From positions 1 through 64,000 of the forward strand of contig JALDZX010000040.1 of NCBI GenBank assembly GCA_022813865.1: 64,000 bases of DNA. The letters are read 5' to 3'. Position 1 is the stretch's first letter. Each line of letters opens with the position of its first letter. The notes beneath the pieces were generated by a model, which saw only the letters and a program-made list of their open reading frames with translations, ran no database searches and was not told where the DNA came from. Made by a program: the position numbers and the translations under genes. The DNA is from Xylographa opegraphella. Lineage: Eukaryota. Below are positions 44,147 through 47,289 of the stretch, piece by piece.

Positions 44147-44604
44147 CGTAAGCTTAATATAAGTATCTTGAGTTTGCAATGCGACAATGGTCCAGCATCA
44201 CTTGATTTGGACTGTCTTCGGAGACAAAACGCTGCCGATCATTTTGCACAATTCCGTATTGCGGGGAACGTGAGAGCGGTACGATAAGAACATCGCCTCT
44301 CATGGATCTCACGAACATAATGATGCTGCAGGAGTGAATGTATACAAGCATACAAGATGAACAGATCTCAGGCTTCGAGAATTTATTCTCATTGAACCAC
44401 AATTACATTTATCCAGTTCTGCAGTCAATTCCGTGTGCCAGATGTCCCGAGGTCCAAATATAAACACCACAGCCAATGTCAATCTGTACCACTACTACCT
44501 TTCGCCCTTCAACAGGAACCTCATCAACGGAGCTATGACCTGCTTTGGTTCAGATTTCCTGGCTGATGTATTTGCAAGCACGTCGATAAACTTACGTAGC
44601 TGGC

Positions 44605-45297
44605 TCATAGCCTAGAACCATGAATGACCTTGTAGTCGACGGCAAGTTCACGGCCTCCATCATTGATGACCAAAACACGAACACTTCCCCGTCCGTGTTC
44701 GAACGACTCGCTCAGTCTCGACAACAGTCCATCCTGGTCGATAACCGGTAGGCCTTGCTTGATATCACCGCTCTCAGTCATGGCAACAACACGGCCATCC
44801 TCGCGGATATCCAACACACGATACTGTTTAAAGACTGGGCCATACATGTTCTGCACAATGACTGAAGGAGCAGGATTGGAGGAGAAGCTTGACTCTTCGT
44901 GGAGCTGCTTGGTGAAAAGGTCAACTCCAAGATAGCGGTGCTGTCCAGTCTGAGAGGAGGTGCTGATGCGGATCACCTGGCAAGGGCGGCCTTGCAGTAT
45001 CAGGAGATCGCCCACACGGATGTGGTGGCACGGAATGGTGATCGAGTTCGGCATGTTGCGTGGCACCTCAGGGTACTGTTGACGCGGTGCTTCAGAGTAT
45101 TGAACGCTCTCGCGTACTGTCTCGCGTATAGGTGGAGGTGCAGAATGTTCGGACCGTCCGCTCTTATGTTCAATGACAATCTCCTCGCGGTCGTGATGAT
45201 GGTGGTGATGGTCGAATGGGTGAAGAACACGATCGGCAGCTCGTTCTAGACCACGACGGAATGAGTGATAGTGTCCCGCGTCGTCGTAATAGCCCAT
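44605..45297 (-). CDS. hex-1: Woronin body major protein HEX-1 (AUG-initiated core)
   Basis: MGYYDDAGHYHSF, poly-His, eIF5A-like fold (IPCHHIRVGDLLILQGRPCQVIRIS, HRYLGVDLFTKQLHEESSF) and C-terminal PTS1 SRL. Confidence 0.97.
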   Translation of the reverse strand: MGYYDDAGHYHSFRRGLERAADRVLHPFDHHHHHHDREEIVIEHKSGRSEHSAPPPIRETVRESVQYSEAPRQQYPEVPRNMPNSITIPCHHIRVGDLLILQGRPCQVIRISTSSQTGQHRYLGVDLFTKQLHEESSFSSNPAPSVIVQNMYGPVFKQYRVLDIREDGRVVAMTESGDIKQGLPVIDQDGLLSRLSESFEHGRGSVRVLVINDGGRELAVDYKVIHGSRL

Positions 45298-45907
45298 ATC
45301 ACGTTTCTTGGGCTGTTCGACGGTCGTCTCTGCCTCGATGTGCACGTGCTCTCGAGGGGCTCGACGCTCGTATTCAATCCCGGCGTCGGAGTTGTTGCGT
45401 CGACGATACTCACGTTCGGTTACGTCGATTTCAGTTTCACGATGAGGACGCTCGATGTCGATGTTGATGTCGGTATGCTGCTTGAGCGGTGCTTGGTAGC
45501 TGTAGCGTTAAGCAAATTAGATAGTGTTAATGTAGAAGAAAGATGCTCGACAATAGACCGTGCTCGATCTGGCGGATGTTGGGTGGAATGATGACCTACC
45601 GATCTCGAGCAAGTTCTACTTCGGGGAATCGACGGTCGCGTTCTTCGTAGACTCTGATATCCTCGCTGCGGCGCGGACGGCGGTTACGGTCCTCGTCGTA
45701 GATCTTTACCTCTTCCTGTTCTTGACGACCTCTGCCGGGCAGCGAGGCGGAGAAGGAAGTAGTGCGAGTTTCGTGACCTTCCCGTCCGACGCGCTCGGTG
45801 TTGACCTCTCCTTCTACTCTAGTACGAGTAGTCTCGTCAACGACGTCGCTCCGGTACGACGATGGGAAGATGCTGAAAGGGACAGGAACTCTGGCGTCAA
45901 AGTCCAG
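45298..45907 (-). CDS. Putative CUG-initiated 170-aa N-terminal extension of HEX-1
   Basis: Exon 45907-45600, GT-AG intron 45599-45500 and exon 45499-45298 read without stops and in frame into the MGYY ATG: (L/M)DFDARVPVPFSIFPSSYRSD..FPEVELARDR..EIDVTEREYRRR. No in-frame ATG up to a TAA near 45960. Confidence 0.6.
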
Positions 45908-47289
45908 GTTGACTGTGGTAGTGGAGCGGGCTGGGTGTCTTGGACAGCCTCCGAAGTGTTAAAGCAACAATTCGAAGGGAGAGACAAGGACAACGACTCT
46001 CTCGATGGGTGATGATGAGGAGGAGAAGGTTCGGACAGTTAAAAGAAGGAGAGGGATGTTTGTGGACAACTGCCTTTAGCTTTGGTGTGAGTCTAGTTTA
46101 ATTGATGTTGACGTGGGTCGGGACGTCCTCTGCTCTGATTCGACAGCCAGAATGCAGTGTTTCTGCACAACTCGGGCCCCAGTGAACGATCTTCCGCTCG
46201 GGTGGGCCACGTCTACGGTGGTGATGTCGGAAATACGAGTGGACGACAGAATGAGAGAAAGGTAAGGATGGAGGGAGGTGAGATGGGGGGGATGTTGGGG
46301 TGCAAGCTTGTGAAAGTCGAAGGCTGGTCCTGTTGACTCGTGCTTTTGGGCGCGCGGGCTGGTGGTCGGGCTGAACTTTCGATTGTTTACGGAGTTACGG
46401 AGTACTAGTGACTCCTCAAGCCAGTGGAAAACACGGATGGGGATCCCAAGGGCGACTTTCATTCACCAAAACAAGGTCAGCCAATCTGTCAACAATCCTG
46501 GAAGCTAGCCAGGGAGAGCTTTCGCGTCGTTGTCACACAGCAACGGATCCGACAGGGGTGCTCTTCTCAGCAAATCTACCAGTAACAGTGTATGCAGTTG
46601 CTCCATCGAATAACAAAGTCGATGTGGTTATGGGAGACAACTGCTCGGGCATGATCAGTGATTGAGATTCTGGATAGGAAGACGGCGAGGCTTCAATGGC
46701 CGACCATCAGCAATCAAGATCCTGCTTGGGGTCCCCCTCGATGGCTTTTGGGGTGGATAGACCACCAGAGCCTGGATGTCGGGCGTGGACTGCCCTCATT
46801 GGTGCATCAAGCGTCGCGGATGCACCTTCGGCCACTGCTTTTCAGCTCGCATGCAACTGGCTTTGCTGCCTCATGCAAGCCGCTGGCACTGGGCTCTCGT
46901 TTCTCTAGCGAATAGGATGCCGTTGCCGTCGACCTCGCATTTCACTTGTGGGTAACTGCTCCCAAGCACAAGAGGACGACATGCGAGAGCGAACAGTTGA
47001 CGATAATCAGAATGCTTGGATCTGTTAGGCATGCAATTTGTGCTCGACCTTGCTATACGGCAAGCACCCTACCCTAGCCACCGGGCTTCTCGTCTACCAC
47101 TACCAGCACAATCCTGTGACTCACTCATAATATACACAAATGCGTATGAAAACAGCGCAGTGTCAACGTTTGCGAGACTTGGTTATTTTATTACGTACAG
47201 ATTTCAGTCGTCGGTGACGGGGCACCTGGTTCGGTGTGCAACGGCAGTTTTAACAAGATAATATGCTGCCGGTGGCATGGGCATTACAA

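Follow-up and report, generated by a model that had tools for sequence, protein, structure and literature searches.

HEX1 is the textbook example of a single-protein organelle matrix. It forms the crystal of the Woronin body, which is derived from the peroxisome, and it has been studied as a protein of ~19 to 25 kDa that starts at the peptide MGYYDD. Here we describe the hex-1 gene of Xylographa opegraphella, which lies on the minus strand of a 64,000-nucleotide (nt) stretch of contig JALDZX010000040.1 (assembly GCA_022813865.1), the whole of which we call the window. Comparison of this locus with its relatives indicates that hex-1 probably yields two proteins from one mRNA by leaky scanning: a form of ~400 amino acids that initiates at a CUG codon and the classical form of 230 amino acids that initiates at AUG. 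A preliminary description of the window, made from its letters alone, had proposed leaky CUG initiation with a minor ~400-residue form beside the AUG form, and the comparative evidence supports that proposal.

The preliminary description had placed a hex-1 coding sequence (CDS), a 100-nt intron, an open frame reaching back to a TAA and a CTG at 45907-45905 in the window, and each was found on the minus strand as described (Table 1). The AUG of HEX1 occupies 45297-45295, and the stop codon occupies 44607-44605. The protein begins with MGYYDDAGHYHSF... and ends in ...VIHGSRL*, in which SRL is the peroxisomal targeting signal 1 (PTS1) tripeptide; MGYYDD and SRL serve as criteria for HEX1 in the accessible part of a study of Verticillium dahliae Hex1 (PMC7762394). 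The core matched PF21485 (IF5A-like_N; E value of 1.3e-7 and 31.8 bits, with a cutoff of 27.1) and PF01287 (eIF-5a OB fold; E value of 4.2e-6 and 27.3 bits, with a cutoff of 24.2), and no intron directly follows MGYYDD. Upstream of the AUG the frame is kept across the intron, one exon ending in cg and the next beginning with c to give an arginine codon. From the CTG to the codon preceding the AUG, the mature RNA holds 510 nt, or 170 codons, and the long product would comprise 400 residues versus 230. As had been claimed, the extension is free of AUG: none of the three frames across the 510 nt contains an ATG, versus 5.9 expected from composition, and the next ATG upstream of the ATG-free zone is at 46462 on the minus strand. 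Stop codons are absent from the HEX1 frame of the extension and number 4 and 9 in the other two. Moreover, the CTG is the sole in-frame near-cognate codon between the TAA and the DFDARVP block. Pfam matched no family within the extension when the long frame of the window was searched. We conclude that a long open frame devoid of ATG is joined by splicing, in frame, to HEX1.

The DNA of relatives was taken from one scan of metagenome contigs and comprised 80 loci in 25 clusters at 90% identity. The codon and context to which the preliminary description had drawn attention were found throughout, as 80/80 loci had CTG as the Leu codon, flanked by A at −3 and G at +4, and no ortholog with a non-near-cognate codon was seen among them. 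Seventy-three of the loci were found via a regular expression and the other seven, which read ATC CTG G, were found via a pattern without the Leu codon, and thus the invariance of CTG is not an artifact of the search pattern. As a control, seven further conserved Leu columns in these genes were counted, where CTG accounted for 28 of the 181 codons (15%); its share among all Leu codons of the genes was 76/558 (13.6%). In 173 predicted proteins, the residue preceding Leu was N (150 proteins), K (10), T (9) or I (3), and one protein read MQ; those 172 residues all have codons that begin with A, which fits A at −3. The peptide LDFDARVP is invariant from its L onward. An in-frame stop lies 2 to 42 codons 5′ of the CTG, commonly 2 to 3 or 14, in all loci with known upstream sequence, and no in-frame ATG lies 5′ of the CTG in the 80 loci. 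We conclude that the CTG and its initiation context are conserved.

Some unnamed gene calls have M exactly at the position of the Leu, namely P0125 (a cluster of 33), P0184 and P0150, which read MDFDAKVP.., MDYDARVP.. and MHIDARLP.., and P0185 reads MQDFDARVP at the start block. Judged by their predicted proteins, these lineages may have ATG, GTG or TTG replacing the CTG.

Absence of ATG between the two starts extends to the relatives. The frame from the CTG to MGYY was continuous in 32 loci, 29 of which were short transcript-like contigs, and in all 32 the intervening 576 to 1,089 nt held no ATG in any frame, whereas 6.3 to 11.8 were expected. The complete downstream core CDSs of these loci held 6 to 13 ATGs each. 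Constancy of the CTG and absence of ATG on this scale go well beyond what chance would produce. At the protein level, the extension was without Met in 27/27 open reading frames (ORFs), in 136/138 predicted proteins and in 104/104 MGYY-bearing proteins of a Sordariomycete search; the Met frequency of the core was 1.4%. Around the MGYY ATG itself, position −3 was a purine and position +4 was G, both in the window and in 26/26 relatives. We conclude that the lack of ATG in all three frames over up to 1.1 kb would be hard to explain except by leaky scanning.

The extension also has the character of coding sequence. Its frame ran for 170 to 463 codons with no stop, and the other two frames held 2 to 8 and 4 to 22 stops. 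Nucleotide differences among relatives were concentrated at third codon positions. The preliminary description had suggested the ratio of nonsynonymous to synonymous substitution rates (dN/dS) as a check, and pairwise values for the extension were below 1, with a median of 0.37 and a range of 0.13 to 0.66, and the median for the core was 0.14; these values come from the 136 of 351 pairs that passed filters for dS (0.05 to 2 in both parts) and length (at least 50 aligned codons). Closely related pairs gave 0.13 to 0.40 for the extension. Motifs of the peptide persisted across classes although the nucleotide sequence diverged. Besides the N-terminal motif, a second conserved motif, IDVTEREYRRR, lies at 45429-45397 on the minus strand and has the consensus ID.TEREYR.R.QP.Y with invariant E and R columns. 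We conclude, on the comparative evidence, that the extension is under purifying selection at the amino acid level.

As a structural model, the full-length long isoform of one relative (the L013 ORF, with a 47-row alignment) was predicted as a monomer. The extension was predicted to be disordered, with a predicted local distance difference test score (pLDDT) below 50 for residues 1 to 183 except for isolated residues, and a single weak helix was predicted at residues 185 to 194, at the second motif. The HEX1 core was confidently folded, with pLDDT of ~90 at the C-terminal domain, and docking of the N-terminal motif onto the core was not seen in this monomer model. Tryptic peptides of the extension would be of the type VPIPFSVFPSSYR. 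Separately, the codons for PSSYRSD (CC. TCG TCG TAC CGG AGC GAC G; 45840-45862 on the minus strand of the window) were unusually constant at synonymous sites in the window and the relatives; at the RNA level these codons can pair into a small GUCGUCG/CGACG hairpin.

RNA for the window region came from two metatranscriptome runs (5 to 6% of sampled words), the source of which was a ~90%-identical relative. The hex-1 intron was removed in RNA contigs of both runs (2/2). Record 8 of run X2 spans 44307-45838 at a depth of 74 and record 7 of run X1 spans 45168-45921 at a depth of 56, and the extension and core CDS share RNA contig and depth. The contig ends at 45921 (X1) and 45838 (main contig of X2) are not readable as transcript starts. 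One further contig, of depth 2.6, is colinear with the genome over 45859-46028, across a possible ccacag acceptor just 5′ of the CTG. The RNA data for the window locus are consistent with two starts on one mRNA, weakly so if taken alone.

Transcripts of the other relatives bear on the same point. An ATG-free leader of 102 to 426 nt preceded the CTG in 27 of the 29 transcript-like contigs, the leaders were colinear, and an in-frame ATG before the CTG was found in 0/29. Three of these contigs (L052, L036 and L022) matched genomic loci (L047, L035 and L034) at 97 to 100% identity with the leader colinear, and their introns were removed only 3′ of the CTG. The preliminary description had named an upstream AUG-bearing exon spliced to ccacag as the finding that would overturn its proposal, and no AUG-bearing 5′ exon joined in frame was found among the 29 contigs. 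We conclude that the transcripts of relatives enter the extension directly from a leader and not from an upstream AUG exon.

Table 1. Features of the hex-1 locus in the window (positions in the 64,000-nt stretch)
Feature	Position	Strand	Evidence
Canonical HEX1 CDS (MGYYDD... to SRL and stop), 230 amino acids	44605..45297	-	Pfam matches; C-terminal SRL
Extension part 2, up to the codon preceding the AUG; holds IDVTEREYRRR	45298..45499	-	Columns E187 and R191 invariant
Intron, 100 nt, GT..AG, frame preserving	45500..45599	-	Joints 45499/45498 to 45600 in RNA contigs, 2/2 runs
Extension exon 1: conserved N-terminal peptide LDFDARVPVPFSIFPSSYRSD, then charged region	45600..45907	-	186 long HEX1 models; third-position variation; RNA contig
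Candidate CUG start of long HEX1	45905..45907	-	CTG in window and 80/80 related loci
Initiation context gtcaacCTGg, A at −3 and G at +4	45904..45913	-	G[TGC]CA[AT][TC] CTG G kept in 80/80 loci
Inner stem-loop of 5′-leader hairpin (CCUUCGAAUUGUUG...CAACACUUCGGAGG), holds in-frame TAA	45948..45978	-	Folds of window and relatives
In-frame TAA closing the frame 17 codons 5′ of CTG	45959..45961	-	Frame reading of window
ATG-free zone: leader, extension and intron	45298..46461	-	Window scan

The extension is widespread in gene models of HEX1. It matched 186 long HEX1 models at E ≤ 1e-3, those with names being from Lecanoromycetes, Eurotiomycetes, Dothideomycetes and Leotiomycetes and also from Geoglossum, Xylona and others. 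Eurotiomycete matches included Aspergillus, Penicillium, Talaromyces, Histoplasma and Coccidioides; a second search with cluster look-up added Sordariomycete matches in Xylariales, Sordariales, Hypocreales, Colletotrichum, Gaeumannomyces and Coniochaeta. A search of a representative library with the extension returned 90 clusters without names, many of them exon 1 fragments. The block that the preliminary description had mentioned for long Aspergillus models is real and reads ANLDFDARVPIPFSVFPSSYRSDA in Aspergillus fumigatus (P0064). We conclude that the putative dual-start arrangement occurs in all major Pezizomycotina classes sampled.

The models disagree upstream of the block, where their predicted N termini are mutually unrelated. 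For several NCBI models that carry a partial flag, the first residue falls at the block or just before it, and the Coniochaeta model P0355 begins exactly at the L. In X. opegraphella itself, the extension shares 99% identity with part of a 1,452-residue "hypothetical protein" (P0003), a model that invents an intron of ~1.3 kb to join hex-1 to the gene upstream. That neighbor encodes a Ser-rich protein of ~1,040 amino acids and extends on the minus strand from 50424 to a stop of its own (47292-47290). The models of X. trunciseda and X. pallens are similar fusions, and those of X. bjoerkii and Ptychographa have unrelated short N termini. Fused and invented N termini arise because predictors face a coding exon without an ATG.

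The preliminary description had raised the expectation that protein conservation would stop 5′ of the CTG. Coding-type conservation does begin at the CTG, and in that respect the expectation held; conservation at the RNA level, in the form of a hairpin, continues further 5′. The hairpin has two tiers, with CUUCUUG and CCUUUCG on the 5′ side of the loop and CGAAAGG and CGAGAAG on the 3′ side, and examples in relatives lie at L022:156-256, L045:240-340 and L024:217-317. When the pairing was laid on 37 leaders, 97.7% of cells were paired and compensatory double changes occurred in 4 of 12 pairs, a level of pairing and covariation that was reached by 0 of 500 shuffles. Fold z scores were −4.4 to −5.2 in three relatives, with only −1.1 in the window and −1.05 in L052. 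An Rfam scan of 45300-46500 gave no match at E ≤ 1. The hairpin might control scanning, bind a protein or localize the mRNA. A smaller recurring hairpin (GUCGUCG/CGACG) at ~+45 to +68 after the CUG was dropped, as its fold was not significant.

In protein alignments, the 3′ arm of the hairpin had looked like a conserved peptide, "(F)ERHSRKDA..VN", ahead of the Leu, and "FERHSRKD" or "RHSRKDA..VN" was considered as coding sequence with a start further 5′. The hairpin block lies 33 to 45 nt 5′ of the CTG, in phase 0, 1 and 2 in 26, 11 and 3 of 40 distinct leaders, respectively, and an in-frame stop falls between it and the CTG in 19 of the 40. Because the phase varies and stops intervene, the block is not HEX1 coding sequence, and the candidate was rejected. 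Also within the leader of the window, an out-of-frame CTG at 45947 (A at −3 and T at +4) opens a 16-codon frame (45897-45947, minus strand) that, by eye, ends at a TGA at 45899-45897, just 3′ of the main CUG.

In the mechanism that we propose, hex-1 would be transcribed into a single mRNA with a long leader that lacks AUG. Scanning ribosomes would first meet the CUG at 45907 in a strong context, where a minority would start, presumably with initiator methionyl-tRNA. After translating a disordered arm of 170 codons with acidic and basic residues, these ribosomes would continue in frame into HEX1, and the resulting ~400-residue isoform would keep the C-terminal PTS1. The majority would pass the CUG and, because the 510 nt of mature mRNA that follow are free of AUG in every frame, would reach the MGYY AUG at 45297 and make the classical 230-residue HEX1. 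What the long form does is a guess: it may join HEX1 assemblies via its core and expose the disordered arm, with its two short motifs, for tethering or for limiting assembly.

A conventional AUG start, located in an exon further 5′ or at an alternative 5′ end and spliced to an acceptor just before the CTG, would account for the open frame in a different way. A plausible acceptor, the ccacag at 45920-45913, precedes the CTG by 6 nt; gene models of X. pallens (P0006) and X. opegraphella (P0003) employ it or others close by, and in the window lineage the site is bridged by the single low-depth contig mentioned above. The 29 transcript-like contigs, however, run colinearly into a leader in which an in-frame stop, and never an in-frame ATG, precedes the CTG, the three with genomic counterparts have no leader intron, and no acceptor is conserved before the CTG (..ctccgtcaat and ..aggtcgtcaac). 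An upstream exon would, moreover, leave the invariant CTG and the lack of ATG in all frames unexplained, the predicted N termini that would supply it being unrelated to one another, and we regard it as highly improbable. It is only slightly easier, and still very unlikely, that the extension is an untranslated leader whose open frame and conservation reflect RNA constraint and in which ATGs are avoided as they are in leaders. The conserved hairpin, the predicted disorder of the extension and a literature search with its peptide strings that returned no match would all suit such a leader, and the V. dahliae Hex1 paper, in its accessible part, deems long N-terminal extensions a probable misannotation (PMC7762394). 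RNA constraint does not predict 170 to 463 stop-free codons where each other frame has 2 to 22 stops, nor third-position variation, dN/dS of 0.13 to 0.66 in all 136 pairs and peptide motifs kept across classes.

Translation of the extension from one or more near-cognate codons other than the CUG is unlikely, if less so than its not being translated at all. Of 36 distinct upstream stretches, 30 have in-frame near-cognates after the stop and before the CTG, mostly AGG or AAG with a few TTG and ATC, and gene calls P0070 and P0072 open the frame further 5′ (SSFRHVERHSRRD...). The CTG is nevertheless the only in-frame near-cognate after the upstream stop in 6 of those 36 stretches, as it is in the window, and no codon further 5′ holds a constant position; the conserved block there shifts phase and is followed by stops in 19/40 leaders, while LDFDARVP is invariant from its L. 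Finally, the CUG form could be the only primary product, with the 230-residue protein arising by proteolysis. Cleavage of HEX-1 in Neurospora crassa, and a mature length left undetermined in many fungi, are described in the accessible part of a paper on MrHex1 (PMC7559983). The lack of ATG in all frames is sensible only if ribosomes scan to the MGYY AUG, which is itself invariant and in good context in 26/26 relatives. Near-cognate codons being inefficient, CUG would also be a poor sole start for a very abundant hyphal protein, and of the explanations considered we give proteolysis the least credence.

Several observations weigh against leaky scanning from the CUG or temper the case for it. 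Evidence from RNA is thin for the window lineage, with two runs from a ~90%-identical relative, and the sole contig over ccacag, at a depth of 2.6, may be pre-mRNA or DNA. The transcript status of the short contigs was taken from their lack of introns, with genomic confirmation for three, and their 5′ ends are possibly incomplete. Two contigs of one lineage (L073 and L078) have ATGs ~211 to 221 nt 5′ of the CTG, which could represent an upstream ORF or foreign sequence at a contig end. Met is present within the extension of 2/138 predicted proteins, protein-guided alignment may somewhat depress dN, and the text search of the literature with peptide strings from the extension, noted above, found no match. 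A stable hairpin 5′ of the CUG could lower scanning, and no initiation-boosting structure was found 3′ of the CUG when positions −6 to +90 of the window and five relatives were folded (z scores of −0.48 to +0.74). CUG initiation, the proportion of long to short form and any function are inferred from comparison and not from direct observation of translation.

Leaky scanning past an upstream CUG is familiar from FGF2 and c-MYC, in which one mRNA gives mostly the AUG isoform and a lesser amount of a longer one. Unlike those genes, hex-1 would space its starts 0.5 to 1.1 kb apart with no AUG in any frame between them, and its product is a self-assembling organelle matrix protein. Among fungal genes the closest likeness that we noted is to cpc-1, which encodes CPC1 and which, in the accessible part of its description (Ivanov et al. 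2017, PMC5487733), has an extension conserved in the Pezizomycotina that lies in frame 5′ of the annotated start, begins at near-cognate codons whose context (A at −3 and G at +4) is close to optimal, evolves under purifying selection and is left unresolved by annotations. The genes differ in that cpc-1 has AUG-initiated upstream ORFs and several candidate near-cognates (PMC5487733, in the same part), whereas hex-1 has one invariant CUG, no AUG in leader or extension and a longer extension of 170 to 463 codons. hex-1 is absent from the main text of that N. crassa paper on non-AUG initiation, the main text alone being the part considered (PMC5487733). We conclude that the comparative evidence supports the addition of hex-1 to the known class of N-terminal extensions started at near-cognates by leaky scanning, in an unexpected protein.

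Long and variant forms of HEX1 have been reported in other terms. The accessible part of the V. dahliae study describes Hex1 isoforms of 188 and 209 amino acids that arise by alternative splicing of an intron just after MGYYDD (PMC7762394). As in the arrangement proposed here, one gene would give two HEX1 proteins that differ in the N-terminal region; the V. dahliae isoforms, as described there (PMC7762394), share the MGYY AUG and differ by ~20 residues 3′ of it, whereas the CUG form would add at least 170 residues 5′ of it. According to the accessible part of the Metarhizium paper, 51% of 460 GenBank Hex1 entries are 405 to 534 amino acids long, and a 392-residue model of MrHex1 is taken at face value, with misannotation deemed possible and no start codon mechanism offered (PMC7559983). 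The long GenBank models contain the same extension but carry unrelated, invented AUG N termini or partial flags. No literature linking HEX1 or HexA to CUG or other non-AUG initiation or to leaky scanning was found, subscription papers being mostly outside reach, and a prior description is possible. A Trichophyton rubrum propionylome lists K168 of HexA; the length of the model is not given there, and the site is hence uninformative for the extension.

At its widest, the proposal is of an ancient dual-start gene of the Pezizomycotina, and here we write more tentatively. CUG-started HEX1 with a disordered, highly charged arm of 170 to 460 residues might regularly be present, as a second component, in Woronin bodies or the septal-pore plug, the terminal motif LDFDARVPIPFSVFPSSYRSD and the internal motif ID.TEREYR.R.QP might be docking sites for tethering or crystal nucleation, and the leader hairpin might set the CUG:AUG ratio or localize the mRNA according to the state of the cell; we hold this extended picture to be possible rather than probable.

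If dual initiation at hex-1 is correct, a second conserved proteoform would exist that is two to three times larger than the HEX1 known so far. Its existence would account for the half of database models that seem "too long" and for the fusion of hex-1 to its neighbor by predictors, as in the 1,452-residue model of this locus, and annotators would gain a rule for placing the true start of hex-1. The gene would also be a clean natural example for the study of translation, with one invariant CUG, up to ~1.5 kb of AUG-free mRNA and a conserved leader hairpin, all testable in tractable fungi. For the biology of these fungi, the long form would be a new player in the assembly and tethering of Woronin bodies and in the plugging of pores, processes that are tied to virulence and stress resistance in plant and human pathogens.

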